A DNA stretch of 64,000 nucleotides from Takakia lepidozioides. Its lineage: Eukaryota; Plantae; Bryophyta. How positions within the stretch are numbered: position 1 is the stretch's first letter; every line of letters begins with the position of its first letter. The position numbers and the translations under genes are program-made. Positions 4,037 through 53,653 of the stretch are shown here, piece by piece. Under the pieces are notes generated by a model. The model had not been told where the DNA came from and ran no database searches. It was given only the letters and a program-made list of their open reading frames with translations. The DNA lies in contig CM060731.1 in the NCBI GenBank assembly GCA_030704615.1, forward strand, positions 14,322,001-14,386,000, read 5' to 3'.

Positions 4037-4038
4037 CT

Positions 4039-4050: not shown

Positions 4051-4089
4051 AGAGTTCAATACGCGATCGTCCTTGGGATTGGCCTCATC

Positions 4090-19296: not shown

Positions 19297-22200
19297 ATGA
19301 AAGGTCGCAAGCTGAACATGACACTGAAAGAGATCGCAGAGGAGAGCGCAGCCCTGGAAACCGAACACATGGCGGGGGAGGACTAGCCGCCAGCTCCTGA
19401 TGAAGTTGGGGATGAAACTGCGTCAGAGGACGACACAGACGCTATGGACACAGATGAGGCAGAAGCTCTTGCGAAGGAATCCACGCCGAAGGGGAAGAAC
19501 GTCGTGGAGGAGGAGGCGACGCCGAAGGGTAAGAAGGCTGCCCAAACTGGGAGGACGGCCGCCATTGTTGCTACATCGAAAGCATCTGGGAGTTCTTCGG
19601 CCAAAAGACCTCAGGTGATTCTCTTACTTGCCATCTTCTGTCAAGTTTCCAGGGCATGAAAATTGTGTGCGGTGGCGCACGCAATTTTCTTGCCCTCTTT
19701 TCTGCTATTTTATGCTTGATCGTTCAGAGTAAGACCACAGGGATGCAGGCAATGCACAACACCCAAACCCGGGAGTGACCCACTACTCACCCAAGTAGTG
19801 AGATTAGAGTTCGAGAAATGAGCAATTTCTGGAGGTTCTCTCTATGACATTTTCTCATTTCTCGAACGATCATTACCCTATCTCCGAAGTTACAACTGTG
19901 CTGTGTTATCAGCGACAGAAGCCTTGAAAACTCCGCAAAGTGAGTGTGAGAGAACCCCCAGAAATTGCGTGTGTCAACGCACGCAGTTTCTGGATGTTCT
20001 CTCACACTCACTTTTCTGCCTATAGTGAGATTTGATTAACTGTCTGCAGCATACTTTTATGGAAGAGAGTAGATAGACATTGGGTATGAAATAGGCAAGG
20101 AAATGAGTACCTTTCAGAGGGTAGAAAATTGCGTGTGTTGAAGCACGCAATTTCTGGCAAGTCTTTTACATTCGTAATATATCGTTTTGAGTGTAGACGT
20201 AGAAAAGGAAAGGTGCTACTCAGGTCGAGGAAGAAGTGATTGAGCAGGAACTGGTGGTTGTTGAGGAGGAGGACGATGGCAGGCCCTATGAAGACGGAGC
20301 GAAAGATCTGCTTTCCTTCTCCAAAGTGAATTCTGCCCAAGTCATCAAGGCCATGGGCGTCCCTGGGGGAATAATGATACCCCTATGCCGTCTGATCTCC
20401 ATGCCCTTCGTTCGACCAGCTCTCACGAATGACATTCAAAAGTTGGAACATGATTTTTGCCATGGGTACATAGAGGGTCAATCTGTTTTTTACGTCTCCT
20501 TGGTGGACTCCGCTGGCAGAGAGGTGTTGGTGGACGAGTCCATTGTTGGAGGCTGGGATCCTATCTGACGACAGATAAACGAGGAGTTTGAATCTGTCAT
20601 TTGCAAGAGGCTCGTCACCCAGCCTTTCTCAGGCAAGATGTTTCATGTCTGGGATGGCAACCACCGATTGCTTGCCTGGAGGAACATGATCAAGAGATAT
20701 CATAGCACCAAGGAGGAGTGGCACTACTCTGTGGCCTCAATGGTGCTGGATCCCAAGGGAAACATCACTGCACTGTTGACGGCAATGCATGACGTTAACA
20801 AGTAAGTGTCTCACCTTTTATTGTCCGCATTTTTCCCATGACTGTTTGTTTGCTTTTAGCGCTCGCTGACGACATACCATTGTATGTGACAGGGGAACTG
20901 AAACTGCCCATGTGACAACGAACCTTCTTCACACACTATTCAGGATCCAGAATATCGGCCAGATGCCCCTCAATTCATTCAAGAGCATCGTGAGTGCGGA
21001 GTCATTCAAGAAATAATTTGACATCAAAAACGTCAGATACCTGGTACAAACTGACGAGGGAAGCATTCATGGAGTACATGTACACGTTAAGTATTCCATC
21101 GCTCTAGCCTTCCATTGTCTGTTGTGATTGTCAGTAATAAGTGATCTCATTCCGGATTACGTTTTGCAGCAAGAAATAGTTGAAGCTGGAGAGGAAAAGC
21201 AGAGTACTATTTGAAAAACCCGGAGGGTATGAGAACGTCCAAGGGAGTGGCGGAAGCCATGAAGTTTACGATGCATGAGGTACGGAAGAAGCTCATGAGC
21301 GCTTTCGTGAAACAGCTGAGAATAGCTGACCCTGATTTCGGTCCCAAGTTCCTTAACCAGGTGAGGATCCACTGGAACAATAACACCAAACCGGAGATGA
21401 CACAGGAAAAGCTTCACCGGTTGTCAACTGTAGCGGTGGAAGCAGACCTGAAAGTGAAATGGTTGGAGATTTGGAATTCCGACCAAACTGTCAAGGATAC
21501 ATACTGCTTCCCTAGGGGTGAAAGAGATGAGAACATCAGGCACATCAAACCTTCAGCAACCAAGTTCTTGATACATGGTTGCACAAAGCCACCTACTTGA
21601 GCCAGGTACTTTTCAAGACTTTCTTTGCTCAAAATTTTGAGAATATCTTCCCATGCATGGAATCTAACCCATGCATATGTATACCTGCAGATTGAAGCTT
21701 GTACAAACAAGGTGCTGGAGAAACAGCTTTATGACTACAAAATTACCATGACCATGCCTGAGGACACTTTGGAGGATTACTTGAGGCAGTGGAAGGCCAC
21801 TACTTGGAGCAACTGCTTCTTTAGAGAGTTTTCCCGAGATGGAGGCATCTCCCGCACAAATGACTTTGACTAGCAGTACGGGGCGGAGGAACCATGAAGA
21901 GGGTCCTATATAGGTTCGTTGATTTGTTTTATGTTTGGAAAATATCTTTGGCAATTAGTAGACAGACAGTTTGTGGCCATGCAAAACTGCATGTGCCAAC
22001 GCACGCAATTTTGGAGGGCCACAAACCCAGATGTGTTCTCTCCTCCATCATGTCTTTCATTGGCAGTTCTGAATGGAATATCTGTCTGCCGAGAATGGGA
22101 TATCTTTCTGCATATGGAACCCTTGGTTTTCTCCTGTTCTTACATATGTTACTTGTGAGTGTATTTCAGTTGCCTCATGCTCAAGTATGTGTGCACCCCA

Positions 22201-24350
22201 AAATTGTGTGCGTCGACGCACGCATTTTGGGAGGGCCGCAATATATGTTTTTTTGCCTTCATTGTCTAAAAGTGTACCTCCTTTTTTTTGTAGGTATATC
22301 AAGAACGTGCTCATTCCGGGAAAAAACCTCAGTAAGTACCCTGCCTTCATCGATTTGTGGACCTCTGACCCCTCTAATAGTCAGACCATGTACACGGTAG
22401 CCATCCTCAGAGACTACGGAAGATATCACCTTAAAGACTGCTGCTGGTATCTTGACATTCCCAAATCAGATTGCCCCTGGTATGAGTTGCAGACACGGAA
22501 CCAGAACGACAATGCGGAGTCTTTGGCCCCTCTCACTGACAAAGAATTGCATGAGAGGAATCTGCTGAACCTCGCTGAGAAGGAACCCGCAGCCAACAAA
22601 ACTCATGTGAGAGGGAAGGGAAAGGGAAAGGATACAAAGGACGAAGGGAAGGAGAAGGCCACCCAAGGGGAGACTGCGGGGGGTGAGGTAGCGCAGACCC
22701 CAATTGCAAACAAGGAACAAAAACGTAAGGGGAAGTTTGAGCCATACGACGCAGTGGAGCACCCATCTAGAATCCAGCGAGAATGTAAATGCGAGTTTGT
22801 CAATGATTCGTTCCTTGCCATGATGGAAAGCAGAAAATCTGGTTACACTGGAGAACCCTCTCGAACTTGGGGCAAGCTGTGTGCATTCCTTGAGTCGGTA
22901 AGCCAATTCCCACTATTTGTCTCCATTAATGTTTTCCATTTTGGATAGTTATTTAATTTTTGTCGTCTGTCTGTTTTCCGGTTTCGAAAGGGCAGTGTTG
23001 GGTCAATGGTACTTAGAAACCATATGGTGCCGACATGGTGATTGTGGACATTCCGGATGGGCTGCCAGTACCGGATATTCTACCCACAGGCACCTGCCCA
23101 ACATGGAATGCATTCGATGAGAGGTACTGGCGGTGGGTCTTTCATTTTGCAATTTTTTTTTATCGGATGCAGGGGTTATTGTAATGATCCAGTCCGTCAA
23201 TACGAAATGTCGACGGGAGCTTGCAAGCTACCTCAAGGTCTTGGGGATGAAAATCATCGAAACGTGGAATGGTGTGAACAGCCTGTACTTGACAAAGGGC
23301 GACTGTCCCGGACAAATGGTAAACGACCTGCTCTTACCTGCTTCATTTGAAGTTCAATTTCACCCCTGCAGAAATGAGTGCGTCAACGCACTCATTTTCG
23401 GTGGTTTCAAGCACTGCTCTTTCCAGATGATTTTTTGGGGATTCACTAATATGTGCTTCATGTTGTCTTGTGTGTAGACCCGCCTTTTTGAGGCCGTATG
23501 CCTCGTCAGAGTGCACCTGCTTCAACTCCCACAGCAGTGAAAGAGTTCAGGCTTCATGGGGGAGGTTGTTTAATCAACGATAAGTTCGATCCAGTGGTGG
23601 ACGACATGCACTACAATTACGTGGATTCCAATGTGTGCTTGCAAAAGTTCCACACCATGGAGAGGGGAAGAAGGAGAAGAGCCCATCATTTATTCAAACA
23701 ATTGTGGAGAATAGTTCCCATCCGGGGGCGCACATCGTGGACCTCACTCTTGGCACAGGTTTCACCCCGAACCTGTTGCGGTGTTTTCTTCTTGGTGCAA
23801 AATTTGATTCATCGTCCTAAGAGTACTCTGTCTTGCAGGAGCTTCGTACCATGCTTGTAAGGCAGCGGGCACACATTTGTTTGGTATGGAAGGGGATGCG
23901 GCCATTTTCAATGACCTCCTCCATAACTTGGAAGCGCCATTGCCTGCCGCCCAACAACATGAGGGTATAGTGAATGTGGAAATCAACGAAGGGGACGACA
24001 AAGTCCTGGACGACAATTTCGCATGTGAGTAAGTTATTTTTCTATAAGTATCCGATTTCTCCCACGAAAATGGCCCCCCCTTTCTCATTCATGGTGGCTA
24101 ATGCAATTGTGGTACTTTGGGTGGCAGGATATTGGAAGCTATTCCTTTGGTCGACGTCTCTTTTCTTCACAGTGACTTGTGGTGCAGCCCTCCACGTTCA
24201 TACATCCTACCCGACTACGTGGAGGCCATTGCTCGTCAACACAGTTTCATGTTATCTCCCCCATGTGCTCGGAAGCACAACAGGCACCTCGGAGCTCGGG
24301 TTTACGTCGATGATACAGCACAAGTTTCAGGGGATAGTTCTAGTGACTGA
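19297..24350 (+). pseudogene. Spliced ParB/Srx-like + beta-class amino-DNA-methyltransferase-like gene (copy B partner, all domains present)
   Basis: Acidic/basic N-terminus; IPLCRLISMPFVRP...FHVWDGNHRLLAW (DGNHR at 20653-20667); ADMVIVDIPDG (DIPDG at 23047-23061); KEKSPSFIQTIVENSSHPGAHIVDLTLGT|GASYHACKAAGTHLFGMEGD. Premature stops at 19384 and 20566, plus frameshifts. Confidence 0.8.
19658..23397. repeat. Dispersed intronic palindromes AAATTGCGTG(T/C)GT-CA-ACGCACGCAATTT (copy B type)
   Basis: Copies at 19658-19689, 19958-19993, 20124-20154, 21982-22013, 22197-22231 and 23372-23397 (perfect AAATGAGTGCGT-CA-ACGCACTCATTT), all within predicted introns. Confidence 0.85.
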
Positions 24351-24647: not shown

Positions 24648-25320
24648 CCTAGGGGATGATGTTTGTATTGACTCTCGGGTCCAACGCAAGTTCAAAGGCA
24701 GCCTCCTGATGCCTAACATTGGTTATGGGTCAAACAAGGAGACAATGCACCTAGGGGATGATTTGTGGACTCTCGGGCTCAACGCAAGTTCAAGGGCAAC
24801 ATCCTGATGCGTAACATTGGTTATGGTTCAAACAAGAAGACAGTGCATCTAGTGGATGATGTATGGACTCTCGGTTTCAGCACAAGTTCAAATGCGGGAT
24901 CCTTATGCCTAACATTGGTTATGGGTCAAACAAGAAGACAAGGCACCTAGGGGATGATTGGTGGACTCTCGGTTTCAGCGCAAGTTCAAGGACAACATCC
25001 TCATGCCTAATATTGGTTATGGGTCAAACAAGAAGACAAGGTAGACGTTTTGTCGATTTCTGTTACACAATGTTGAAAGACCCGGAATTCCTCCTCATGC
25101 ACAAACGAGAGCCAGATTGATTTTGTATGTTGTTGTATAATGGTCCTGATGAAAAACCATGAAAGTTGCAGTGCTCTCGTAAGATACATGAGCACATTTC
25201 TACCTCACTGGCAAGGGCCGCAATACGCATTAGAGTCCAAACCATGTTTAGCGTGGTCAGGTGGTGCGTTGCAGGAAGTATAGTGCTGAAATGGCTCACA
25301 ATGTGTCGACACTGAAGAGG
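24648..25320 (+). pseudogene. RPL32: Captured 60S ribosomal protein L32 (eL32) fragment, first part amplified 4x in tandem
   Basis: Units of ~98-102 bp at 24648, 24750, 24848 and 24946 encode [25 protein letters not shown]. They are followed by ...EFLLMHKR, an intron-like spacer ending TTGCAG, then KYSAEMAHNVSTLKR. Confidence 0.88.
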
Positions 25321-25358: not shown

Positions 25359-26203
25359 CACTACAACATATTGCGGTATTTATGACTGTATATATGACTA
25401 TTCTGCAGTCATAAATGGTACATATGACTTCTATGACTGTAAGTCGTGCAAACCAAGTGAATACAATGAGTACAAGATGGTACGGTCCGGATGACTACAG
25501 TTAGATGAACCAAGTGATATCTCTCACTGCAGTCATATATACCATCATACTGCAGTCGCAGCTGCCGAGCCACGTGGCGAGGCGCAATTGATTAAAAATT
25601 AAATTAAATTTCAAAAACTAAAACAATTAAAAACATATGTCGGACGCCGCGTCGCACCGCATTGTGCCACGCATAATGTATTTTATAATAATGAAAAAAC
25701 CACGTGGAGCCCATCTAGGCTACCACGTGCTATCCCTAGCTCGCCTACTAACCCTAGGACCATCTTATCCATTTGATTGTACTTAGAGGAGTTTGAACCT
25801 GCAACCTCTTTACTATAAGAATTATAGTTCACTACCTGCTAACCAATACACCATTAGTCATTCATGTGATCATATGGTGTTTTAATTGTATTATACACAC
25901 CAAATTACATAATCCCCAGTAGTCATCATGACTATGTAATCTCATCCATGTACACTGTAGTCATGGAAATGACTATGAATGGTGAGCTAAATCTGGTCAA
26001 TTGTCATTGACCAGCCTTCCGCCCATTCCGGAGCCATGTAGTCATACAGACGACTACTTAGATAGTCGTTTATATGACTACAGTCGTATGAACGACTGCG
26101 GGAGGTCAATTTCATATAAAAACATGGTACAGTCATGGTCAAAGTCAAGAAAACCGTGACTACCATGGTTTGGCAGTCATAACTACCGCGATCTGTTGTA
26201 GTG
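25359..26203. mobile_element. CACTA MITE-like element of the same family as 13228-19162, opposite orientation
   Basis: CACTACAACATATTGCGGTA ... TACCGCGATCTGTTGTAGTG; TSD TGC/TGT (one transition). About 180-220 bp at each end match the reverse complement of the Pack-CACTA ends. Confidence 0.88.
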
Positions 26204-27031
26204 TGTAGTAAGCACTCGGACAAAGTCGCAAAATGAAAGATCACTCTCACATCTGCTGTGTTGTCTTTTTCTATGTTGCTGTCATCTGTCTACATTTCCC
26301 CAAATGCCAGACATTCATTAAATCTTATCAAGTGCTTCATGATGGATTTTAGGTACAATTTCTAATGTTTGTGCAAACAACATTGATCGTTGTGCTTGGT
26401 GTTCATAAATGTTAGAATGACATCCTCGCTCAATATTCATCCACTCTATCGTCCATTCACGATATTTCATCCACATTTGTCCACAACTATTCATCCCCAT
26501 TCATCCATACTCGCAGTGTCCCATCCACATTGGCTCTGCTTCACCCTCATTAACTTATCCACAACCATTCTAGACTGATGACAACAACATAAAATACCAA
26601 ATTAGCATGGCATTAAATCATTTGAGGACCATTGTAGACTGATGACCTGGACATTAATACATCCACAACCATTTCAGTCTCTACAAACACTATCATTCTG
26701 CAACATTCACCAACATTCAACTCTCTTCTGCACCTCGTCTCGTCGCCCACACATGGTTCTCTGTCTGCCAAATGCGCAATCCGCGGCTATAGACCCCCCA
26801 TTTGCCTCTTCGGTCCGCGGTTATAGGGCCATGCCTATGAAAATGATGTGGCATGACACGACGTGGCGTCGGGCACGCTGGCGAGGTCGGCTGACGTGGC
26901 GTCAGACCCGTCAGCCAACGTGGCAATAACTGATGATGTGGCGTGAGCCCGCCTATGCTCACGCGCTCTCACGCTCACGCTCTCACGCTCACGCTCTCAC
27001 ACTCACGCGCTCTCACGCGGAAGCATCCCCC

Positions 27032-27965
27032 CCATTGGCCTGTCACGAATTCGGCCTGCCAACACTCCTGCTTATGTTGGGCATTTCGACGTTTGGGGAG
27101 GAGGTCTACACATAGACCCAAATTGCGACCCAGTTGAATCTGATGTTGTTCACAACTATGTGGATGCGTCCCAGACTCTGAAAAAAACTGGAGGAATTCC
27201 ATGGAGAGGTGCCCGAAAGGAGTCGCCCGCGTTCATGCAGACCTTCATTGAGACATGCAGCCGGCATGGTGGCAAAATGGTTGACCTCTCCATGGGCACA
27301 AGTGCATGCCGAAACTCTTCTCCATTCTTCGTTGCACATGTTCCTCTCCTGTTTTGGCTTGTGACATGGTTTTGTGCTTTCATTCGCTATCCTGCAGGGG
27401 CTTCGTTCCATGCCTGCAAGTGTGTAGGAAGACATCTTTTTGGGTTTGAGGGGGACGAGGAGCTTTACTCTCGGGTCATCGCTCCACTCTATGAGGGATC
27501 CTCGCATTCGACCCAGACTGAGAAGATTGTGGAGGAGCAGGATCTGCAAGAGCCGGATGCTCTAGATGTGGATTGGGATTTTTCATGTGAGTAAGTGCTT
27601 GTTCTTTTGTGGCAACTCATAGATCCCATGACGGATCCTGTTGGCGTTCCTTTTTGTGGCTGAAGTTTGGCTTCTAGAGTATTTAAGAAGTTTACTCATT
27701 ACTGTGTGGTTGCACGAGTCATATGACGCCACGGTTTCTGTCGTTCTTTGCCAACCCGGATTTTTTCCCAAGTCCTCCAGCACAATTTCATTTGCCATCT
27801 TATGCGGAGGCTGCGGCTAAGGAGTATAGTCTGCTGGCATCTCCCCCTTCTCTGCTTCACGAAAGACATGGTTTTCAGCAGAGCAGGGCTAGCATCTTTG
27901 TGGATAGTTCTACCTTCGTCCTGAACAGTGCGTCTTGTAGTAGTGGATCTTCTTTGTCCGAATGA
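27032..27965 (+). pseudogene. 3' exons (methyltransferase motif I region and tail) of a ParB-MTase partner gene, probably copy A
   Basis: GGGLHIDPNCDPVESDVVHNYVD...PWRGARKESPAFMQTFIETCSRHGGKMVDLSMGT|GASFHACKCVGRHLFGFEGD...DFSCE and a last exon SPPAQFHLPSYAEA; homologous to 23498-24350. Confidence 0.85.
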
Positions 27966-29115
27966 ATCGATTCTTGTGAAGGGTTTGTTTAAAAACAACG
28001 AGTTCACCTGTATGCCTTCTTTATGATTGGATGTGAGCCTCTCTCTCAACCTTGTATAACTGGGAAAATGACATGTGGTCCTTCTCAATCAACAAAACAA
28101 TGTGGACTCAAAGTTTGCAATATACACTGCACCCGACATAATTGATTTTCAAGCAAGACAAGCATGGTTTCATGGATTTCGGAGCTCAAGGGTTTTGGGA
28201 GCTACCACTACAAACAACTATCTATTCTTTCATTTATGTCATTCATCCACCTCTCATTCGTTATACAGACATTCATCCGACATTCATCCCTCATTCATCC
28301 AAACAACATCCATATCCGACCTTGTGATACTGGCCACTCTGCACAGTAATAGGTCTTCTAAATCGACTGGACGTCCGCGGTTATAGGTAGGCAGGTCCTC
28401 AAGCTGAGCAGATTTCTGCTCACGCAATTTTCTGCTCGCGGGATCTGCGCACACAATAGCATCCCCCCCCAAGGTGGGTGCATTTGAGGATGCAAAGCAA
28501 GGAACTTATGTGTACTCTGCTTATGTACTGGGTGTGGCAGGGAGGCTTTGGAGATTGTGAATGGGTGATGCCTGATAGGTGAACCTCATGTGTATTCTGA
28601 TGTTTGTGCCAGTCTTTGAGCACTGAAAAAGTGCAGATGGATCTGTATGTATTTGTAAGCCTATACGTTCCGATGTGAGGTTCTCTGGTTTTATGACAGG
28701 AACAAAACAATTGTGAGCAGGAAGTGAAGGGTCATCTCCTATTGGAATTCCTCAATCAGCATAGCTGGGCTTGAATCAAACATCAATGGACCAGGCCTTT
28801 CGTCTTCACTAGGTGTTGTTGCTAAAAAAATAACCAATTGTGAGAGGGTCCCTAATCGAATGATGCTTCTAGGTACAGGTGAAGTAGAGGAATATAACAT
28901 AATATTACATCGCACTTTGCACCTAACTTCCCAACAAAACGGCGTAGCATCAACCTTGGTCTGAGAGAGAAAGCCACAGTTCTCTATATAGATTAGCGTG
29001 ATTAAATTTAAAGTCGCACTCTTAGGGTTTCATTCTCCTCAAAAACCCACCGATATATACTTTCAGCTGCACCCGCCTCTCTCTCTCTCTCTCTGCACCA
29101 TACATACAAACAACC

Positions 29116-29820
29116 ATGTCAACGTCGGAAATAGCCGACACAATAGACATTGTAACGGACCAACAAATCCAGGAAATAACCCACCAAGACATGACAAAAG
29201 AGAAATACGACAGTTTCACGTCCAATGACCATCATGTCCTAAAGGTGGGGAACACATGGAAGCGCCTGCCCTATAGTACAAACTTCCACAACGCCTTGTG
29301 GAACGTCCCTTCGGACCATGAAGAAATAGCAATCTTCGTAGGTATTGCAAAATTCCCCTACCTTGGCAAAACCGGGAATGACAGATTCGTGACTTTCGCC
29401 GAAGAACTAAAAGACGCAAAATTCACAATATTGATAGAAGAGAACCATTTCCTGTTCGACTACGCAAATACAATAACGGAATGGTCCGATAATTGGAGGA
29501 GGAGAGGCGAGGACATGAGGTGGATGGGTGGAAACAACATGAGCTTCATGAAAAAGCTCCTAAAAACTAAAGCAAACAACTCTGGCTCGACGTCCGGTAA
29601 CAACAAACGTCAAAAAACAAACAACGACGAGATGTACAATACAATAGAAGTCCTTAACGAAAATGGCCAAAAAATGGATGGAGAATCCGTATGTTCAGGG
29701 CATCTCGTTGCAGTCAAGTGTAACATCCGATATTGGATGAATTTCCGTCACAAGAAACACGGGCTTTCATTCCAACTAAAAGGGGTCAAACTGTTGGCCA
29801 AAGCACGACAGGAGACATAG
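29116..29820 (+). CDS. Intronless 234-aa protein, putative OB-fold ssDNA-binding protein (T7 gp2.5-like)
   Basis: Intact ATG-to-TAG ORF with TATA-like and CT-rich sequence upstream. GIAKFPYLGKTGNDR and VLNENGQKMDGESVCSGHLVAVKCNIRYW...GLSFQLKGVKLL follow the gp2.5-type strand pattern (recognised from memory, not searched). Confidence 0.55.
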   Translation: MSTSEIADTIDIVTDQQIQEITHQDMTKEKYDSFTSNDHHVLKVGNTWKRLPYSTNFHNALWNVPSDHEEIAIFVGIAKFPYLGKTGNDRFVTFAEELKDAKFTILIEENHFLFDYANTITEWSDNWRRRGEDMRWMGGNNMSFMKKLLKTKANNSGSTSGNNKRQKTNNDEMYNTIEVLNENGQKMDGESVCSGHLVAVKCNIRYWMNFRHKKHGLSFQLKGVKLLAKARQET

Positions 29821-30565: not shown

Positions 30566-30941
30566 TTCCTATATTAATGAGACGGCGGGCCCCATCGTCT
30601 CACCAGCCTCATTACGAGGGGCCACACAAAATTCTGAGCCATATGTTATTATTAGGAGCCATATGTTATTGTTGTGAGGCTGGCTCCCACACATCCATGC
30701 TATAGTAATCTATGAGCCTTGAGGCATATTACTATTGTTAACATGTTTCAGAATTGATATTGAAGAATGGAACTCAATTTCTATTTTAATTCTTATGTTA
30801 AATGAGCAATAATATTCATGGTACTTTTTGAAGGAATGTGTCCTAAAATAAAATTCATTATTAGGATTTAATTTTATTTCAGCCAAAAATAATTTTATCC
30901 TTAATTAATCTTAATTTTCTAATTTATTTAATAAATTAACT

Positions 30942-31110
30942 AGGACCCGGATCCGAACCCGTGAACCCGCTAATATTTTCCAATAACTACCCGGACCCTG
31001 CTGAGTCCGTGTTGAGAAACCCGGACCCGAACCCGGATCCAGACCCGGACTAGGCTCCAAAAAAATACCCAAACCCGAACCCGGCGGGTTCCTTAAAAAG
31101 GCACAACCAT
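30942..31110. repeat. ACCCGG/ACCCGAACCCG cluster resembling a hAT subterminal region
   Basis: Multiple ACCCG(G/A) motifs ending near CAACCATAG after an AT-rich stretch; matching end and TSD not found. Confidence 0.4.
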
Positions 31111-32232
31111 AGTATAGAGCATGATATATATTGCCCCTAGTATCGTATTGCCTGGGCATTGGCCACCCTACCTACCAGCCAGGTAGGACCTACCCGGGTT
31201 GATATCAGTATTGATACCCGGGTTGGACCCAACGTTTTTTTTTCATTTAAGAACTTGAGCCATGTTGGCTCCTGGCTGGCCTATGAGGAAGATCAATTGG
31301 CGACTCTGTGGCATGTGATCTCGAACCGGTGGCTACTGTCAAGAATGTTTGATGAGTTTTATGCGAACTCAACTCATGTAGTGTTCGGTTTGTGGGAGCG
31401 ACAAGGGAGGTAATTTTTTCCAAGTAACAACGACACTGCATATTGCAAAGCCTAGCACAACTCTGTCACATGGATACAATCCATTGACAAATATGACTAA
31501 TCTTGTCCAAGATCAGCAACTCTGCTCAAAGCCTCAGGGATGCCTCGGCGTGAGCCTGGTCACGTGAGCGCGTGAGCACAACTGCGCTCACGCCACGTCA
31601 CCTTGCGCAAATGCCACGTCACGGGGCTCACTCCACGTCATCACACGTGAAGGCCGCGTCACCACGCGCCCAGAAAGAAGTGGAGTGTATTCCCGCGGAT
31701 TGGCACCCTTTACCGCGGAAACAAGCTGGACGACATAATAAAAGGCATTGAATAAAGGATGGATGAATGTACAGTTGGATGATAAACAGATGGATGAGTG
31801 TGAAAAATGAATGTAGATGGATGAATGAGGGATGGATAAGAGTAAAATGGATGAATGTATAATGGATGTTGAGCAATGACAAAAATTCATGACAGGAAGA
31901 TGCATGACCAAAACTTTTGACAAATGCACAACGTATATGAAATGAGTGTGGAAGGTTTGTGGGGTGGATTAAAGAGTACAGAGGATGAATGTACAATGGA
32001 TGTTGAACAAAGGAAAAAATTCATGAATGGAGCACGCATGAATACACTGTAGATGAATGCACAATGGATACGAGAAGAGTCAGGGAGGTTTGTGAGATGG
32101 ATTCATACATATTGCAATTTAAATGAAAGTTGATTCTGTGATTATTATTTGTTCTAAAGGAACAACTACGGTGGAGGAAGGGGATTCAACGTTTTCCAGA
32201 TAGTATGAAAATGAATATTAAAAGAATACAGT

Positions 32233-35200
32233 TCAGTCTGACTCGGAGTCAGTACAATGTATCCCCGCTTCCTCTGCATCTAAGTCTAAGTATTTTAGAA
32301 CACCGGATCCACGCTGGATACACCTACGGCTGGCCACTAAAAAGTCAGGGGATAGGGACTCGGCCGCGTGAAGTGCCATTGCTTCGGCATAAACAGGAAG
32401 CAGAAAATTGGAAAGGGGGCTGTCGAAAACAGACTCGCCAGAAATGGTTTATACTCGATTATAACACATTCTACTAGAGTGGAGCTGCAGAGAACATTGA
32501 AACTCATCATGAAAGCACAAGCAGAAGGGAGACGGCATACCAGCTGACCAGGGAAACCCCCTTTCACAAGGTAGAGGCTGTTCACACAATTCCATGTGCG
32601 CAAAACTTCAAACCCTGAAGACTTGAGGTATGATGCCAATGCCCGACGACTATCATTGTCACATGACTGAAAAAGCAGAAGTGTCCCTGCATCAGAGAGG
32701 AAGTTGTTACAGAACCCGAACACCCAACTCCAGTAGTTGTCCTCGAATTTGTTCCAGCCTGGCGTCTTGCCCTTTGGAAGAACTTCTGGCACAGCCTGGC
32801 CATCCGGGATGTCGAGAATGACAATGTCGGCCGCATAAGTTTTCTGCACACCGCACACGAAGGTGGGACCTGTGCTCACCTGCAACAGACATGTTTTTTA
32901 TAAGAACGATGGCAAGAATGTTTTCAAAGAACGAGACTGAAATACTGCCAACGAAACTTTCAGAGAAAAAGGAAAGAAACTGGAATTCTCACCAGATTGA
33001 GGAATGAGATTATATTGTCCCAGGTAGGGGATGACACCCCAGTGTATCCTCTCTTTCGACTCTGCATCATCGACAGCCAACCCTCATTAACAATTTTCAT
33101 CTCTCCTGCCGAATCAGAACGGGAAGGGTGTGGCTTGGCATCGAACACGCACTGAACAGTGCGGGTATATCTTCCAACAGTAAAGTCCTGCCCACTCTCC
33201 ATCTCCTTTTCTTTCTCCTTCCCCTTGTCCTTTTCCTTCTCTTTGGACTTGTCTTTGTCCTTTGGCTTTGCTGGTGAGATGGCTATGACATCAACAGCCT
33301 TGTCTTTTGGTTTGCGGCCCGCATTCTTTCCCTTCTGCGGCGTTCCCTGAGCATCAGGCTCCTTGGCAGCCAATGTTGCTATGTTTCGTTGGTACTCTTC
33401 GTCAGTCAAAGGCGCCAACATCTTAGCGTTATTGTTCAAGTATTTCATATGCTGTTCTTGAAAGGTCGTGTGCTCCGGTGGGCAGTCAAGGTACCAGCCA
33501 CAGTCTCTGAAGTGAGAAGGACTCTAGTCCTTCAATATCCTTGCAGTATACATGGTTGGATCGTTTGCAGGGTCCGACCACATGTCAAGATAGTCTGGAA
33601 ATTCCGTTCAAGTGATTTCCTTCCATAAGCACATATTTCGTGTACCTGAAAAAAAGAGATAAATCCCAACCCACAAAAGCGCTCAGTGAGTAAGATGCAA
33701 GTAGAACAGAATGAAAAAAACATAGATTGAAATGGCTCTGAGAACTGCTCCAAGGACCTTCCAGGACCACGCGACTGCTCCAGATGTGAATGTCGTCAAC
33801 GCCATTCAAAACATTCCATTCAATGATACTGTAAATACACCCTAATCCAGGTGAATGCAAACTATCGTTTTGGAATGACACAAACATAGAAGTGAATGTC
33901 GTCAACGACATTCACTAATCAAGCCTAATTATTCCTCAAGTGAAGCAAAATCACAGGATGGAAATCATAAACTCGAGTAAGGAACCCTCCAGGAAAACTC
34001 AATGCACATTCATAACGAACATATCACTGAGGACCTCACAACAACACTGTATGTGAATGGCGTCAACGCCATTCAAAAAAATACAAAAAAGAAACCAATT
34101 ACTTAGCTCCCAATCCATGTAAATTCAAAGTGTCGCTGTTGAATAATACAAACACAGAAGTGAATGTCGTCAACGACATTCACTTTGGATTTCTCATAAC
34201 AGAGCTTATCAAGCCTCCAGATTCCTCGCAAGAGGCAAAAACAATGCAGAACAACTGAGTGTCTGCATTGACATTCAGCAAAATGAAGTGAGGAACCCTC
34301 ACTGTAACCTCTATGGACATTACAAAAATTTACATAACTCTGAGGACCTCTCAACAACTCCGGATGTGAATGTCGTCAACGCCATTCAAGGACATTATCA
34401 ATTCTAATCAGGGACACTATAATTACACCCTTAGATCCTAACCAGGTGAATTCATATACTCGCTTAAGAATGACTCAGACAAATAAGTGAATGTCGTCAA
34501 CGACATTCAATCTGGATCTATGATTGCAATCCTTATGAAGCCACATTTTTTCCCAAAAAAAGCAATAGAGTTTCAAGTATGACATTGCACCTGTACACAA
34601 CTCGCATCATGGCCCACTCTCCTCCAACCTGACTGTCAAAGTCGTTGGACCGTAAAATGTTACCATCTTTGGAGAACTCCCGGAAAAAACAGTATCTCCA
34701 GGTGAGACCTCACCACTTCCTTATGTATGCCTCCAATGACATTTGGGGAGGGGAAACAATCGAAATGTTCAGGTCCTTCAAAGTCTGATCCAACACAATG
34801 ACGGCGCGCTTTTCGAGCTGCAAATAGTATATTTGTCAGAATTGCAAATAAGATACTTATCACATACTTGAAGAGAAGAAAACAACATGTTTGAATACAC
34901 ACCTGACTCCAAAATGTAGCCTTGTGGAGCCAGTTATCAAACACCAAATCACTGATTCCTTCCACCTTTGTGCCAGGCTGTATGGTGCTATTTGGGAACT
35001 GATTCAAGTCCTTTACTGTTTGATCTGAGTTCCATATCTCCAGCCACCTTATTTTTGTTTGTGGGTCGACCATCGATATGGCCAGCCGGTGCAATTTCTC
35101 CTGCTCCATCTCCGGATGCACATGCTTGTCATAGTGTGTTTTGATCTGCTGAAGGAACTCAGGACCAAGTCCAGGATCTACTATTCTAAGCTGCTTTCCG

Positions 35201-36989
35201 AAGGCGGACATCAATTTGGTTCTTCGCATTTCAAACTCCTTCTTTATTGCAACTTCCACACCCTTTGATGTCCTTAGTTCCTCTGGTGTAGTGCGGTAAT
35301 ATTCGGATTTTCCCTTCTCAGCTGCCTCTGCCAGTTCTTGCTGCATTGATTCAAGTAGTGATTAGCTCCGAAGGGACTACAAACATGTATTCGAAAAGTA
35401 AACAGAGTACAGACTCGGGCTTACCGCATACATGTATTCCAGAAACGCCTCTCGTGTCAAAGAATACCAAGTGCCTGCAGCTCTTCCTGTTTTGCACTTC
35501 TTGATGATATTGGGTGGTAGTACTGTCCGAAAATCATCCAGCTTCATCAGACCAATCCTCTGAATTCGGAATAGTGTGTGAACCAAGCTTGTTGTCACAT
35601 GCGATTTCTCTGTCGATCTGCAAAAACATTGGAAACATTGCATTCCTTAACACTGTTTTTTGAGGATTAATAAGACACTACAGAGGGAATGAAATCTCCT
35701 GGATGACTTACTTGTTCACGTCGTGCATAGCTGTAAGAAGCCTAGCGATGTCGTTTCCAGGATCCAAAACCATTGCCTCCACAGCAACATGCTTGTCTTT
35801 GTCTTTCGCATGGTGTTTCTGAATGTATCCCATCCATGCCAGCAATCGGTGGTTGTCGTCCCAGACATAGAACATGTGGTTGCAGAATTGCTGGGTGTTC
35901 TTTCCCATCATGAGGCCCAACTCGAACTCCTCATTGACATCTTTCCAGCACTCATCCCAGTTATCACTGATCTCTGGAGACACTAATGTGCTTTTCCCAT
36001 TTATATCCGTCAGTGACACATAAAAAACTTGTGCACCAAGTCTATATCCATGCACAAAATCACTCTCCAATTTTGTTATGCCATGGGAAAGAGGTGGACG
36101 CACAACAGGCATTGATATCATCCGGCATAGAGGGATGTTCAGACGCCCTCCAGATACGAGCATGTCCCTTATAACCTCCTGAGAGTTTACCTTCTAGAAT
36201 GACATGAGTTCTTTCACCTTGTCAAGGTAGTGCACTTCAGATTCATCTGCTTCATCTGTATTCTCTGAGCTTTTTGCGGACTCGTCCCCATCTCCAGATC
36301 CTCTCCCCTCTGATCCTGTAGGCTTCGACCTCACAGTTTTCTGCACGATGCCATTCAGTTCTGACTGAGTAATTTGCAAATAGTGAATGGCGGTAACGAC
36401 CATCACTCTGTCTCAAAGAAACTCACTATGAATGGTGTGAAACAATTCAGCACAATCTACACAAGCAAAGCTGATATTGCCGTATTCAAAACAAAAGCGA
36501 GAGCGATAGCGAACGGCGTTAACGACAATCACAAAAGATAAGGACCTGCCGGATCGGTGTTGTGTAATGACATCTATGTGCAACTGATTGGCGGCAACGA
36601 CATTCAGTATAGTTTAGGACGGACAGTAAGTGCAGATTATTCAGATTGACTCCACTCAATCTCTACGCATATCTTCAACAATGAAATGTAAGGTAGATAA
36701 AACTTACTGGCGCCTTCTTAGGTTTTGAAATTGGATCCCCTTCTGCAACTTTCCTCTTCCCTCTCACATCTGCTGGAATTTCTGTCTGCTCTAGGGTTTC
36801 TGGACCTTCTCCTGTGCTTCCACCTCCTTCAGTGTCCCTGCGAATCATCTTTGCCTCCAAAGGCTGGCGCAATCTTATCGCCGACTGTGTCACAGCCGCT
36901 GCCTTAGTGTCCGTCTGCTCTTCAGAATCAGTCTCCGTGTTCACCTGCTGCCTTGGCCCTGTGTTCTCCAACAAACGACGCCTCGTCAT
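32233..36989 (-). pseudogene. ParB-methyltransferase partner gene of copy C (motif I exons missing)
   Basis: IPLCRMISMPVVRP...FYVWDDNHRLLAW...AMHDVNK; QLRIVDPGLGPEFL; AADIVILDIPDG...FLSDAGTLLLF; last exon SPLSNFLLPVYAEA...DSESD. Splice positions match copy B. Confidence 0.82.
33786..34509. repeat. Intronic array of palindromes GTGAATGTCGT-CA-ACGACATTCAC (copy C type)
   Basis: Six copies at 33786, 33892, 34053, 34160, 34366 and 34487, arranged as three ~270-310 bp units of two; degenerate copies in intron 1 at ~36385, ~36512 and ~36586. Confidence 0.92.
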
Positions 36990-37845
36990 TTGCTCTCTTG
37001 CTCTGCGTCTCTCTCTAAGGGAAGTAAAATAAAGAGACTTTCTTCTCTTTCGTATTGTAGAAGGAACCCTCTCCAGCTTGACTACCACTCTCTCTCTAAG
37101 CGCGAAAAGTAGAAAAACACAGTGACTCCCGATTTCTTGCGGGATTGCCTGGGTTCTTGCGTGTCTCTAGAAGCATCGGATTCCCTCTCGCGTGACCGTT
37201 ACACATAGTCGTTCCCTTATTAGTGCACATGCCAGCAATTGGTGTACAGCTGTTTGTATTCAGTTATGGATGTCTGACGTGTGTCGCCCAAAAAAAACGG
37301 CGTGTTCTGTATTAGAACGGTTTCAATATTTAAAAATAACAGCGAATCCCAGAAATCTTGGCGCACAGTCTTACACAAATAAATGTAAATGAACGAGAGT
37401 TTGATGACAAATCTTGGAATATCATACACGGTCATCCTTGTTAGTCAAACCCCACATTCGTTTCACATTTGGAACTTTCCAGGTGCGCATGATCATTGGT
37501 AGTAGTATAAAGATACATTTACTTAATCTGCAATCCCATCCTCAGATCCTGTGGCATGCTTCCAGGAAGTCGGCTTTGTTATTGGGTTTATTGATGAGGT
37601 TCTGGTTAACGGTTTAACAGCTGCCGACACTGCTCCTAGGGATACTCTGACCACTGGGCCCACAAGAAAAGTAATTAAAATGGACGGCTGCATATCTGGA
37701 AAGAATAACATAATATGCACAGTCGTTGTCTGATCTTCCTCCGCCATATTCTCTACTCATTCTTCAACTGTGTTCTAGAGACATCAGTAAACCGATTTAC
37801 ACTAGATTTGCGATAGCAAGGTACAAACGTACGCGAGGAAGGAAG

Positions 37846-40800
37846 ATGGCTTCCTCTGAAGCGGAGTTCTTCTCTGACGACAAACCAGTGCCGCTCTCCC
37901 AGGAAGTCCTTGACAATGGATTTGCAATTGTTCTGGAACATGTCTTGGCTACCCGTTTTCAGCTGCAGAATGACTCCATCTTTTTGGAGAAAGAGGTGTA
38001 CGATCTTAAAGGGAAGTTGTTGAAATACTCTTTCCAAAACCGTGATGAGACGGCTCATATCAGCCAGTGGAGAGTGCGTCCTGGTCGATACAGAGTACTT
38101 GGAGAGCCTCGACGAAAGTCCCTTGGGTCATATGTGACGCCCGGGACTGCTGCTTCGGTTGTTGAAGACAAGAGGGAGGTGGTGGTGAAAAAAGAACAGA
38201 CGTCCTCCACTCCAATCGTTGAGCTTTCGGATTCTTCCGATGATGACATAAGTGAAATTCCAAATCCAGTCTTTCCTACTGTGGTTGGAGAAGCTGATGA
38301 AGAAGAGATTTGTAGTGTCATTCCAAAATTGTGGGCGATGGGAGGAATGGCTGGATTCAAAAGTGAGTTGCGGGGAATTGATTGGGAATCTTTGAAGCAG
38401 GTGCCTGTGAAGTTCTTGCCGGAGACTTTTGATGGCGATATCCTATTCGAGCTGCCTCCTCCTCCGCGAGTTGGAGGTGTAACAATCATGATGCATGGAA
38501 TGGACAATAAACACGACGGGCACACGTGGTGCAGAACAAAAACATCCAATATTCAGATTGATGACAAGCTTGTTTTCAGGAGGACAGTTTGCAATGGACA
38601 CCTTAGGTGTGATAATTTGAATTGCAGACACTTTCTTCAGTCTGGGGTTCATAATCAAAGCGAATGGGAGGGTCTGGCGGAAAATCCATTTCAGCCTGGG
38701 ACTGCCCCTCCACCGGCAAACACTTTCGTCTGCAAATTCTGCAAACTTGTGCCATCCTGCTTGGCGCTCTGCGGAGCAAGAATGTACTATGTTGTGCACC
38801 GTTTGAAAACAATGACAAGAGCTTGTGTGCATTTCGGATTCCATAACCATCCTGTCTCGAAGGGGGATTACAGGGAGAGTGTTGAGACAGTATCGAGGTT
38901 GATCAAACAGGAGTTCGGGAGAAACCCATCCGCAACAACATCTGCAATTGCTCTTGGCGCAAGCAAGTCCTTCTTGGAAAGCCATATTTTGAGTGAAGGA
39001 GATTCTGTGGGGACTAAACTTGACGGTGCAGCATTGGACCTGGTCATGGATCATTTCTCCACTTTAAGTTCACCTAACATTCGGCATCAGATCAATGCAT
39101 TGAGAATGGGCTCTGGGATCAGAGGCTACATAGACAATATTTTGGAATTGAAACGAGTGAGCAAGTACGATTACATCCAGGACAATGTATTCCCAGGTCA
39201 AGGTGCCATCAAAGTTTTTCTTTTCAAAATGTCGACTGTTGGGGAGGGCAGTGGGGTTAGCCTCGTGAAGCGGATGTAGAAGACTGGGGACTTGCAGAAC
39301 TGTTTTCTTATGTTTGATCATGTGAAACGAGTGAAGGATTGGACGACAATGGCTTGTCATGTCTACGATCCAGTGTACCAACGAGTTATGACAATTGCAG
39401 TTTGTGACATGCAATCCGAGGATACAGAATCCCAGAAGCTTATGTGGAATTCCCTGATACGTGTCATGGGCTGCCATGGGTTGCCATCTCCAAATTTCGC
39501 AGGTTTCATGGCGGATAGTGCTCAAGCAAATTTCAATGCTGTTCGTATTGTCTTCGGATCGGGCGACCCAAAAGTGCCTATGCCAGGAAGAGAGCGTACA
39601 TGTCTATTCCATTTGACACAATCTCTGGAAAAACATACAAAGTCGGACATCAAACCAGAGATGCAGACTCAGCACCGTAAATTGTGTAAAGAGTACAAAG
39701 ATGCTAGAACAATGAAGGAGGCGGACACTTTGTTCCAGACAATTCGTGCCTGGTGGTTCTCTTCTGGAGCTGCATCACTTGAGAGTATGAGAGCATTGGA
39801 AGATTGGCTGGCGTTTTGGCACTTCCGGTATAGACAGTGGGGAGCAGCCATGACAATGGTACGAGGCTTCTATTTCATGCTTTATTCATACATTTGCTTT
39901 CCATATTTTTGACTCATTGCTTTCTTTATGTTGTTTCCTGTGCACTGTTCTGAAGTGTGGTTATCCTCTTTGCAGAACATGTCCATTGAGGAAATGGCGG
40001 ACATGCCATCTTGCAATTTGGCAAAAACTGTGCACAACGCATGGTTGCAGCAGTCTGGGAAACGAGGTCGGGATTTGTATGTGGCAACAACAGATGATTT
40101 GATACGTGCCTTGCAACAACAAACCCGATACCGTGATTTCTTACGAGGTGGGGTTGGTGGCAAGGGTCCGGACAAATGGGAGTTGATGCTGCGTGCTGCA
40201 AACAGATCTGGGGATCCAATCAAGATAGCACGGGCGGTGAGCATGTATGCCCAGGGAACGCCACTTGTTTCTAGAGTTCCACATCTTGAAGGGGAGGAGA
40301 GATTCGGCTCCTGTAAGAGGAAATTGAACACTCCACCTGGTTCGGATTCAGATTCCCACAGGGCAGACCGTGATAACTTCTCGAAGCCTCGTGTTCCCCT
40401 GCATGACAGCTCCATGTCCGGAACCTCCATTGTGGAGGAACCTCCAACACGACGGCAAGCTCCAGCATCAAACAGTGCCACTGAAATGGTGCAGGAGAGA
40501 AACAACCCCTTGATGTGCTTGAGTCCGTATGCCCCGACCACGTTTGGCACATAGAACGCACAAGTGTAGGGTCTCGTGTGAAATGTACAGCGATCAGGGC
40601 AACTAATTTCGAGAAGTGCACTTCATCTATATCCAGAGGTGGTGCCCAAACTCCTGCTCCGACTTTCACGGGCTTGATGCGTCCATACGGTCAACCAGAA
40701 GCCAAGAACCACAAGTTCTGGTTCTGCGCAGATGATTGTGCCAGATGTGTGCATGGAACTGTGCGTCCTTCCGTAGTGATGAAGCCATCTCCTCCAACCG

Positions 40801-41360
40801 TTTGGCCCGTGAAGGTGGGAACACATCTCAGCTTTCAGGAGATTGAAATGCTGGAGGAGGCAGGTTTTTCCCTTGCGAGACAACCCCAACTCCATGCATG
40901 TGCTACTACTTCTGCATCCTCCCAGGTCCCCCCCGCAAATTCTGACTTGTGGCCAACCAAACGAGATGGAAAGCTCGTTCGGCGTTTCCCTCCAACCGCC
41001 GAACACTTTGGCAAAGTGGAGTCCGCAAGAATGCTCCAAGCTCGTGTTGGAAGCACCATGGAAGTACCCGATCTAGGATATGGTCGGGTATTCACAATCA
41101 TCACTTCCACATCTGCTGTTCATGACAGGACCTACGACATCACGGTTTCCAATTTCCCCAATTGCACATGTCCTGATTTTGTGAATATGCTATCAACCAG
41201 TTTGGGCAAGAGAGGTAAATTCATACCCTGCAAACATTTGTATTTCATATTTTTGAGGAGGATGGTTTGCGATCCCAAACGTGACAACTTCATTCATCAG
41301 GCCACTATGAGTTTCAACGAGGTCGATACTCTTTTGCAGCGGGATACAACACATGGGTAG
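37846..41360 (+). pseudogene. MULE-type DDE transposase with GCM-like domain and SWIM finger (copy C), nearly intact
   Basis: One intron at 39859-39975; LMFDHVK, FMADSAQANFNAV, RTCLFH and SWIM CTCPDF...CKHLYF. Lesions are TAG at 39277, NLAK instead of NLAE (40024-40026) and a frameshift near 40515-40550. Confidence 0.92.
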
Positions 41361-42391
41361 CATGAACTATGTAATGTGGTATGTGGATGACCATGATTTG
41401 AAATGTGTAATTCACATCAATTCGTCGGCTGTGCAATGATATGGCCTCCAACTATACGGAGTGAGCTCTGAGTGACAACTTTTAGGTAGTGCACATTTGT
41501 CATTGCACCGTTCGAAGTCTACATGTCTTGCTGTCGCTATGCACTACAATCATCTTTTGAAGATGATCCTAACTCTCATTGTTATTTGAGGAGGGAGGAA
41601 GGTCTTCCCGTGGCAGCCTTTATGGCGCACACTTTGTGAGGATATTTTGTCGTCCTCGTAATTGTAAAAGTGAAACAAGCATTTGTAATTGCACAATGTT
41701 GGATGCTGCAATTGTAGGCCTCAACGCTCGTCTTGATTATATTTAGGCAAGATTCCCTGCATTAATTCCACGGTCATAAGACCATCCACGGTTATAGGCA
41801 ACGCATGTTAATGCTGACGTGGCAGATGACGGACAGTGCCACATCATCATTTACCGCCACATCAGCATGCTGACATGACGCTCACGCCACGTCACTCCTG
41901 CGTGAGCGTACGCTCGCGCGCTCACGCGCAACGCTCACGCGCAACGCTCACGCCATTGCGTCGTTGTCAAAGCCTCATGTGCCACTGCAAAAGGCGGTGC
42001 AAGTCTGCTTAAATGGAGGTGCATGACACGGATACTAGGCGGGTAAGCGAAACCTAAATGAGAGTCCCCTCCATAGCTTGACCCCTTGGCGAAAGCGGGA
42101 AGACTTTGAACCCAAGGCTTTGCTCCTTGCGCTGGCAGGGTGGTAGGTTTTTAGAAATTGATAGGCAAGATCATCTGGATCTAACGAACCCAATTGGCAT
42201 GTGGCTCTTTCCCTGTGCGACAGTTGTATAAGCAACGTCCTCATTGCAGCGACATGATGGCATTAGGGAGGGCATAATGCGAAACAATGCCATATTTTAA
42301 CCCATAATTCCTTTGCAAATTTCGTGAGGCCAATTTCTGGATCGAAAAGTGGCAAAATTTCGCGCAAAAAAAAAAACGCTGGTTGGACCTA

Positions 42392-43215
42392 CCGTACTTA
42401 CCTAGCTTATTAGGCAATAATTAATTCAAAATCAGGTGCCTAACTATATTTAGAACATTTTTGGAAAATGTGCCTAAAACCTGGAAAAACTCCTGAGAAG
42501 TGCCTAATTGCTCAAAATTGCTCAAAATTGCTCAAAAATCCAAAATGTCCAAACATGTGGAAAAAATGCCTAAATTATTTTATTTAAAGTCCAAAAAATG
42601 GCAAAAATGCCTACAATTTAGATTTTCCATGTCCACACAACTTCCAAAGGGCCATGCGACATCTTCATAAGTCTCATCACCTACCTCATGTGAATCTTCT
42701 GATTCTGAGAGAAGGTTAAGGTCAGGAACATCACGATCCTCGATATGCATGTTTGCAAGACATCAGCTAATGCTCTCAATGACACTTCCATCAAGGTAGA
42801 TATCAAGAACATCCTCCATGGCAAGATCTCCTTCCACTTGGGTGTTTGGGTTTGAAAACAAAGAAAATGTAAAATTGGCTCTCATTGCCTCACCTTGAAA
42901 GGCATCTTCAAATGCTCGTAAAATTCCACAAAGTCTCCAACTTGACAAAATCATCTCCTGTTGGCACTTCACCTCCACCCAAGACTCATACAACCAACAT
43001 TATGTGTTTTTTTAAATAAAATAACCTCAACCATAGTTTTTGAGGGAGGTCTAAAACAATTGTTCATCGTTATCCAGGGTCGACTGAAATACATGCCTAA
43101 TATTTGGAAATTACCTAGTTGAGGTGCCTAAATAATAAAAACGAATCTGCCTAATAATATTCCATTTTAATTAATTAATAGGCGCGGAAGTGCCTAATAA
43201 GCTAGGTGAGTATGG
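42392..43215 (-). mobile_element. Non-autonomous pogo-like (Tc1/mariner) deletion derivative
   Basis: TA|CCGTACTTACCTAGCTTATTAGGCA ... TGCCTAATAAGCTAGGTGAGTATGG|TA (25-bp TIR, 2 mismatches, TA TSD). The internal relic YESWVEV...MILSSWRLCGILRAF resembles a pogo transposase C-terminus. Confidence 0.85.
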
Positions 43216-52995: not shown

Positions 52996-53653
52996 GTCAA
53001 TTATCTTAGGTGGGGATTACTAGCCAGGGGATTACATTGGGTCAGTTCTAGAAGCATTCATTTGCACTCAAGAGTGTACTTAGGTAACAATTCGACTTCC
53101 CCGACGCAGGGGCAACATATCTGACTAGGTAGCTGCAAATTTGTGGCTGTTTGAGATGTAGAATAGTTGTAAAGGTGTGCCCCTTTCAGAGACCAGAGTA
53201 TGAAGCCTCGAGGTTGAGAGAGATCATTTGCCCATTTGATGCATGGAGATAGGCATGCTGTCAAGGATGGGATATAAATTGGAGATGAAGTTTAGTGGGC
53301 TTGTTGCTTGGTTGCATCACTCTCAGGTGGATGTTCTCTGCGCACTCTGGTCCCTCAAAATCCTTGCCAAGCACTATGTGTGATGTGATCATCTTGTCTT
53401 CAAGTTTTCATGCAATGTAGCCAGAGGTCTCTGTGGTCCCCATAGTCCCCTGCACAAACATATTATAAGAAAAGTCTGCTGTCCTCTGAACTCTTTACGT
53501 ATAATAAGAGTCAAGGTGGACTCAGACACTGTCAGACAAGGTGGACGTTAATAATGATGTTACCTCTCGGAACCCGTACTTGGGATTCCCCTGACAAACT
53601 CACGGTCACGCAATGTATTCATGTAGTATTAAGGTTGCTCGGGAGTTCTGGCG

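Follow-up and report, generated by a model that had tools for sequence, protein, structure and literature searches.

What kind of mobile element unites a transposase gene and a divergent, spliced partner gene in the bryophyte Takakia lepidozioides, and what might the partner do for it? We analysed 64,000 nucleotides of this genome (GCA_030704615.1, contig CM060731.1, positions 14,322,001 to 14,386,000 of the forward strand; hereafter the window, in which all coordinates are given). The interval 31535–41966 is one mobile unit with these ends, and an empty site is found in public sequencing data. Taken together with many near-identical copies of the element, a Mutator/IS256-like DDE fold of the transposase, a ParB/sulfiredoxin (Srx) fold predicted for the N-terminal domain of the partner, and clusters of palindromes that differ between subfamilies, this is a conclusion that we hold with high confidence. 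We lean modestly towards reading the element as a decayed, multicopy, two-gene Mutator-like transposon, whose partner protein, with its ParB-fold and methylase-like domains, would likely bind palindromes in its own introns and help its subfamily to escape silencing.

Ends, target site and empty site

The 9-bp sequence TCAAAGCCT directly abuts both ends of the element, at 31526–31534 and 41967–41975 (both +). It has no other site on the + strand of the window and a single reverse-complement copy, at 24552. Two fixed ends would share a 9-mer by chance with a probability of 4e-6, and when a slack of ±3 bp is allowed, 69 of 200,000 random pairs match. The direct repeat extends two further bases at both flanks, to 11 bp in all. 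The left end (31535–31555, +) and the right end (41946–41966, −) form short, imperfect terminal inverted repeats (TIRs), ending at 31535 and 41966 and identical at 15 of 21 positions; the left end also matches, in the same register and at 16 of 21 positions, the end at 27031 of a related element in the window (the sister element). The TIR by itself is weak, as 16 sites in the window, the left end included, reach at least 14/21 against the left end. It is backed by subterminal repeats: GCCACGTCA and CTCACGC at 31548–31650, which are putative transposase-binding sites, and repeats at 41815–41953 that include a 13-bp tandem unit present 2.7 times. Inside the element, GCCACGTCA occurs four times and CTCACGC eight times, none of them more than about 160 bp from an end; elsewhere in the window, the two motifs are found only at the termini of two related elements and at a single site, 43263.

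The ends, as well as the lesions described below, were checked with contigs of four public runs (X2, X5, X6 and X7, each from a different study and together 4 of the 12 listed) placed on 30900–42600. The search for an empty site returned two X2 contigs that join 31525 to 41967, with 60 letters on the short side. This joint skips 10,441 bp, exactly the element (10,432 bp) plus one 9-bp copy, so that a single target copy and none of the interval is kept, and it is the deepest among the X2 joints listed (15 of 53). Run depth, which is summed contig depth and not copy number, steps up clearly inside the element in three of the four runs: the two outermost bins have 17 and 7 against 115–364 in the interior in X5, about 11,000 and 12,800 against 166,000–458,000 in X2, and 0 and 0 against 1.4–53 in X6, while X7 is patchy (1.5 and 0.8 against 0–113). 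At the left end, an X6 contig starts at 31535 and an X7 contig has an unrelated flank up to 31535. The right end was placed from the TIR register and the 10,441-bp skip. A left end at 31535 together with this skip means that the target-site duplication (TSD) is at most 9 bp, and we favour 9 bp over the full 11-bp repeat because of this left end and the symmetric TIR register. Moreover, a shared GGCGTGAGC block is equidistant from both ends only if the right end is 41966. Two imprecise flank-to-flank joints, 31520 to 42004 and 31535 to 41980 (the latter with 9 filler letters), are also seen in X2, and may be excision footprints, paralogous flanks or chimeras.

The initial annotation, made from the letters of the window alone, had placed the element at 31535–41966 and proposed that transposase and partner moved as one 10.4-kb unit. 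The empty-site joint, the depth steps and the two runs breaking at 31535 agree with these boundaries, and the exact skip agrees with movement as a unit. Its 9-bp TSD is present as a 9-mer at both flanks, although it had overlooked that the repeat is 11 bp long, and its TIR of about 21 bp at 15/21, backed by GCCACGTCA and CTCACGC repeats, was recovered as described. The likeness that it drew to non-TIR Mutator-like elements (MULEs) holds insofar as the TIRs are short, imperfect and degenerate, but they are not wholly absent. The nature of the partner and the palindromes in its introns had gone unrecognised there.

Transposase gene and its lesions

The Mutator/IS256-like transposase gene (37846–41360, +) has one intron, at 39859–39975. 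Its landmarks are a GCM-like Cys/His finger, D490 (39316), D556 (39514), a CxxH motif (39601–39612), the position of the catalytic glutamate (40024, lysine here) and a C-terminal SWIM domain, which is weakly matched in the open reading frames (ORFs) of the window (Pfam E 0.004, under the cut-off). We found 62 relatives among 7,994 scored candidates, the best with 40–55% identity over about 700 aa, which equals the first exon in length. When the 27 longest-covering relatives are aligned with the window copy, D490, D556 and H588 are conserved in 27–28 of the 28 rows, and C585 and the Cys/His cluster are also conserved. The catalytic glutamate, which lies in the second exon, is present in all three fetched loci and in the sister copy, and the intron is kept in the fetched relative loci. 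The structural model (mean pLDDT 77.5, pTM 0.43) gave as top Foldseek match the ISCth4 transposase (E 4e-4), which we take to be an IS256/Mutator relative, and, more weakly, the GCM domain 1odh (E 0.014, prob 0.99). In the VIA comparison, the model aligned with ISCth4 at Z 9.4 (rmsd 4.7, 182 aligned residues).

Three lesions are seen in this copy of the transposase: a TAG codon at 39277, the lysine codon at 40024 and a frameshift near 40505. At 39277, other copies read C in the entire depth of X5 (134.4/134.4) and X6 (32.2/32.2), and glutamine is found in all 27 aligned relatives. At 40024, they read G (364,000/365,461 in X2, 132.8/132.8 in X5, 33.8/33.8 in X6 and 13.1/13.1 in X7). One extra C follows 40505 in all the depth of X5, X6 and X7 and in 148,639/307,044 of X2. 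A fourth likely lesion is W589L beside the CxxH motif, where 26 of the 28 aligned rows have tryptophan and position 39614 differs in all X5 and X6 depth. The C>T and G>A changes named in the initial annotation are thus matched by C and G in the other copies. Its count of about three lesions was correct for those that it named and incomplete, as W589L had been missed. The suggestion that intact relatives may exist gains ground for the three named lesions, for which other copies supply the undamaged letters, but not for any whole copy, as the contigs are too short to span the gene. From these reads, intact transposases likely exist among the other copies, and the run depth suggests tens of near-identical element copies in the genome.

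Contigs of two possible RNA runs, which are short or diverged, contain no spliced joint over the transposase intron. No partner match was found at the three fetched transposase loci (two metagenome contigs and one genome-bin contig), which at 2.3–5.5 kb, with at most 1.9 kb upstream, are too short to count. One intron-bearing relative (L003:17-3521) lies on a 4.1-kb contig in a cyanobacterial genome bin; we considered a bacterial origin for this copy and rejected it, as the retained intron makes eukaryotic DNA in the bin the likely source. None of 274 pattern matches on viral contigs was a relative.

Partner gene

The partner gene (32233–36989, −) is divergent from the transposase gene and is broken. 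Its exons, at least eight, were derived from GT/AG splice sites and homology to the two related elements in the window, and are placed at 36989–36708, 36340–35712, 35617–35425, 35340–34903, 34817–34591, 33645–32993 and 32879–32541, with a remnant at 32446–32233. They would encode a ParB/Srx domain, a helical middle and an amino-methylase-like C-terminus. The same exon series is shared by the three diverged elements of the window (35–59% identity in exon matches). The gene has in-frame stops near 36196, 34707 and 33526 and an extra base at 33599. An internal deletion with its break point at 32446–32455 has removed the motif-I exons, which would bind S-adenosylmethionine (SAM) and are present in both related elements; X5 and X6 contigs diverge into other sequence at 32446 and 32455. 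The partner of this copy is more damaged than its transposase.

The ParB/Srx-fold domain is encoded at 35712–36193 (−). This exon has 478 relatives (50% cluster level) at E ≤ 0.001 among 1.84 billion representatives, and eight of ten that were looked up, picked mostly by length, are named Adiantum proteins. A profile of 71 of the 150 listed relatives and the window exon (72 rows) found 24 longer proteins, all of which are Riccia sorocarpa gene models. For the model of the exon (pLDDT 95.5), Foldseek ranked Noc, ParB, PadC, Srx and KorB highest, none at E ≤ 0.001. Among 48,161 chains, VIA returned 12 with Z ≥ 2, eight of these with Z ≥ 5, led by KorB (Z 7.5, rmsd 2.6 over 89 residues) and PadC (Z 7.3, rmsd 2.9 over 94), followed by ParB-N and sulfiredoxin; the chains in these fold listings are ParB, Srx, SerK/SbnI and related proteins. 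The family motif is DGNHR, which reads DDNHR here: G is found in 62 of the 72 rows, H in 66, R in 59 and the asparagine, N114, in all 72. Pfam gave no consistent family over the 72 rows (DndB in 2/72 at E 0.066), and the protein-cluster atlas led to clusters without names and to weak leads (ParB_N on 11% of the members of one cluster).

The evidence for a methylase-like domain comes mostly from the Riccia relatives, two of whose 24 proteins match PF01555 (E 1e-5 and 8e-4). A profile of 15 Riccia proteins recovers the ParB, middle and motif-IV exons of the window in order, the last (32541–32879, −) at E 4e-4. Motif IV precedes motif I both in the Riccia relatives and across the window elements. 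Two window copies read DIPDG at motif IV, 10/10 covering Riccia rows (of 15) read [DN][MIL]P[TS]G, and one fern relative reads DVPF. The canonical (D/N/S)PP(Y/F/W) is absent, with no aromatic residue, from the window and the covering Riccia rows, while amino-methylases canonically have SPPY or DPPY (PMC8885841; here and below, citations refer to the accessible parts of the sources). No relative was found among 159 candidates in a word-index search with the motif-IV exon, and sequence searches against solved structures gave no useful match. From motif order and profile matches, the C-terminus quite probably has a methylase-like fold.

Palindromes in the partner introns

Six 26-bp palindromes with 12-bp arms and a 2-bp spacer lie at 33785–34511 in one partner intron, and three more with the same motif at 36382–36608 in the first partner intron. 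All nine (at most 6 mismatches to the best copy) are located in these two introns, and none in exons. A different palindrome occurs six times in the sister element (at most 7 mismatches), and yet another is present in five close copies in a third related element. The best copies of the three elements have a common GTYRAC core, and their arms differ. Near-perfect palindromes, defined as those with at least 11 of 12 arm positions paired, number 9 in the window, 8 of them in partner genes, against a mean of 0.35 and a maximum of 1 in 20 dinucleotide shuffles of the window. A back-joint from 34192 to 33915 in X5, within a palindrome-bearing intron, suggests that the number of palindrome units differs between copies.

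Proposed role of the partner and alternatives

In the reading that we favour, the DDE transposase would act on the subterminal repeats and move the element by cut-and-paste, leaving a 9-bp TSD; this step we consider quite probable. The partner would bind the palindromes of its own subfamily, and would probably do so as a dimer because these sites have two-fold symmetry; the case for this binding is about evenly balanced. Bound copies would stay transcribable, and the methylase domain would bind DNA or SAM instead of acting as a standard enzyme. We propose, tentatively and by analogy, that the outcome is a self-specific control of chromatin or transcription like that of VANC. VANC targets motifs that are specific to each subfamily, lie in non-coding regions and introns, and are gained and lost by tandem repetition (PMC5735166).

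Several observations weigh against parts of this reading. X2 contains many single-contig joints of similar depth, so that a chimera formed at the 11-bp repeat, or a paralogous flank, could account for its empty-site joint. An unrelated helical chain scores Z 9.5 on the transposase model in VIA, above ISCth4, and neither the ORFs of the window nor four transposase relatives have a Pfam MULE match. Fold scores are middling for the ParB domain (best Z 7.5), whose Foldseek matches stay short of the threshold. The PF01555 matches are below the Pfam cut-off of 26.7 bits (25.9 and 19.9 bits) and are in relatives, not in the window. Finally, the linkage of partner and transposase is observed in this genome only, in the present element and the sister element.

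In an alternative that we consider unlikely, though worth serious weight, the partner would assist transposition as a cofactor, with its ParB-type domain loading at the internal palindromes and aiding end pairing or integration, which would offset the weak TIRs. ParB proteins do load at palindromic parS sites, the partner is predicted to have a ParB/Srx fold, and the TIRs match at only 15/21. The palindromes, however, are intronic and lie 2–5 kb inside the element, away from the ends; the motif is DGNHR, unlike the GxxRxxA motif of the CTP-clamp ParBs; and the methylase-like domain is left unexplained. A parallel to such a cofactor is MURB of MuDR, as integration is described as apparently depending on mudrB (PMC6446971).

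It is also unlikely, and somewhat more so, that the partner works as a DNA methylase, active on N6-adenine or N4-cytosine, and marks its own element, possibly at the GTYRAC-like core. The order of motif IV before motif I is that of permuted (beta) amino-methylases (PMC8885841), a SAM-binding-like motif is present in the sister element, the third element and 4 of the 15 aligned Riccia rows, there is a weak match to a PHROG 'DNA methyltransferase' (E 0.006), and the fern relative has DVPF. On the other hand, the aromatic residue of DPPY/SPPY is missing from motif IV in the window (DIPDG) and in the ten covering Riccia rows, and a change of SPPY to APPA abolished the activity of N4CMT (PMC8885841). 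A bolder form of this idea, which we regard as improbable, is that a Mutator lineage of non-seed plants tamed a bacterial ParB–methylase fusion. The protein would load on the subfamily-specific, parS-like palindromes of its own introns and, using a non-canonical active site, mark its own element with a bacterial-type base, N6-methyladenine or N4-methylcytosine (4mC), and so oppose host silencing by 5-methylcytosine. If true, protein and palindrome would co-evolve, making up a natural library of sequence-addressed epigenetic writers.

We find it very improbable that the partner is passive captured cargo, as in Pack-MULEs, with the palindromes being RNA hairpins or what is left of small insertions. 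MULEs often capture fragments of host genes (PMC6446971), and this partner has several stops and a deletion; nevertheless, three diverged elements keep the exon series, each with its own palindrome variant, and the ParB exon has 478 relatives at the 50% cluster level, with N114 invariant in all 72 aligned rows. That the ends are misplaced, with a TSD of 10–11 bp or less than 9 bp or a repeat matching by chance, is scarcely credible: the flanking repeat is 11 bp and the related elements start with GG where this one starts with CA, but two runs break exactly at 31535, which with the 10,441-bp skip caps the TSD at 9 bp, and the GGCGTGAGC spacing is symmetric only with an end at 41966.

Related elements and other features of the window

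The sister element is of the same kind and occupies 2211–12599 (−) and 19170–24350 (+), with an end at 27031; over the transposase, its DNA identity to the present element is 72–75%. Its transposase is interrupted by a Ty3/gypsy-like long terminal repeat (LTR) retrotransposon at 3314–10237 (LTRs at 3314–4038 and 9489–10237, 93% alike), and its partner keeps the motif-I exons and has its own palindrome variant. No TSD was found for the sister element, whose far end seems deleted. Four tandem 98-bp units (24648–25039) lie downstream of its partner gene. The third related element (1–1990 and 27032–28467), also with its own palindrome variant, has partner exons that flank the sister element on both sides, and a terminus-like GGGATGC near 28467; the sister element seems to have inserted into it. 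In all three elements, CATTCATCC-rich repeats are found between the partner 3′ end and the terminus (31750–32110, 26430–26560 and 28240–28310).

Two CACTA-like insertions with ends CACTACAAC...GTTGTAGTG lie at 13228–19162 and 25359–26203. A 3-bp duplication (CTC) accompanies the first, which contains degraded repeats at 13800–15500 that we take to be pentatricopeptide repeat-like. An intronless 234-codon ORF at 29116–29820 (+) weakly matches phage Gp2.5-like single-stranded DNA-binding proteins (PHROG 112, E 0.023) and is possibly of viral or mobile origin. A 494-codon ORF at 53633–55117 (+) presumably resembles a host gene for nucleotide pyrophosphatase/phosphodiesterase.

Relation to known systems and significance

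The boundaries are an ordinary MULE feature. Like MULEs, the element has a 9-bp repeat within the 8–11 bp range of MULE TSDs, as judged from one locus, and an extra ORF beside the transposase (PMC6446971), and its transposase has the layout of a WRKY-GCM1-type N-terminal finger, a DDE transposase and a C-terminal SWIM domain (PMC1702500). It differs in having no Pfam MULE match and extra cysteines in the GCM-like finger, and its accessory gene is none of PMD, FAR1, SET and MutB, which are among the extra ORFs given in Table 1 of PMC6446971. It shares with VANDAL elements short degenerate TIRs, a 9-bp TSD, a spliced accessory gene, and subfamily-specific motifs that are clustered in non-coding parts, including accessory introns, and gained or lost as tandem repeats (PMC5735166, PMC6446971). 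VANC proteins, however, have DUF1985/DUF287 and 8–9-bp motifs in one orientation, in place of 26-bp palindromes and a ParB/Srx plus methylase-like protein, and DUF1985/DUF287 are not among the Pfam matches of the window ORFs or the relatives. By analogy, the likeness to VANDAL and VANC would be functional and between unrelated parts, with no homology found or expected.

Bdelloid N4CMT and Marchantia MpDN4MT1 also have the PF01555-type permuted motif order in a eukaryote, but these genes belong to the host, keep SPPY/TSPPY intact and write 4mC (PMC8885841; bioRxiv 10.1101/2021.02.12.428880), whereas the partner is transposon-borne, fused to a ParB/Srx domain and non-canonical in motif IV. The repeated palindromes are a feature shared with ParB/parS. 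KDZ transposons carry TET/JBP. Mobile elements with a domain of DNA-modification type also include DIRS elements with Dam-like domains, whose copies are described as likely inactive, and the DNA methyltransferase retrotransposons of Symbiodinium and Klebsormidium; these differ in methylase and element class, and no ParB/Srx fusion or palindrome arrays are described for them in the accessible text (PMC4738411, PMC5890265). Phage ParB–methylase loci likewise have a ParB/Srx fold adjoining a methylase (PMC4738411). Unlike these loci and ParB/parS, the partner is a spliced eukaryotic gene with a DGNHR motif and no ParA or terminase. MULE accessory genes, retroelement methylases and the beta-class host methylases of Marchantia are thus already known. 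In the accessible parts of the literature, we found no published MULE with a ParB/Srx–methylase-like gene and palindrome arrays, though repeat databases (Repbase/Dfam) or supplements may list the family; a look-up of the terms in the accessible text of PMC7466625 and bioRxiv 10.64898/2026.08.24.746577 gave no match.

Detailed knowledge of how DNA transposons evade silencing comes mainly from VANDAL and VANC in Arabidopsis. The Takakia element has a VANDAL-type layout, with weak TIRs, a spliced accessory gene and subfamily-specific intronic motifs, built from bacterial-type parts. Near-identical copies in the same species that lack the transposase lesions of this copy make the idea directly testable. 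The large, unannotated family of ParB/methylase-like proteins in liverworts and ferns may itself be transposon-borne, which is possibly another route of bacterial-type base marks into plant genomes.

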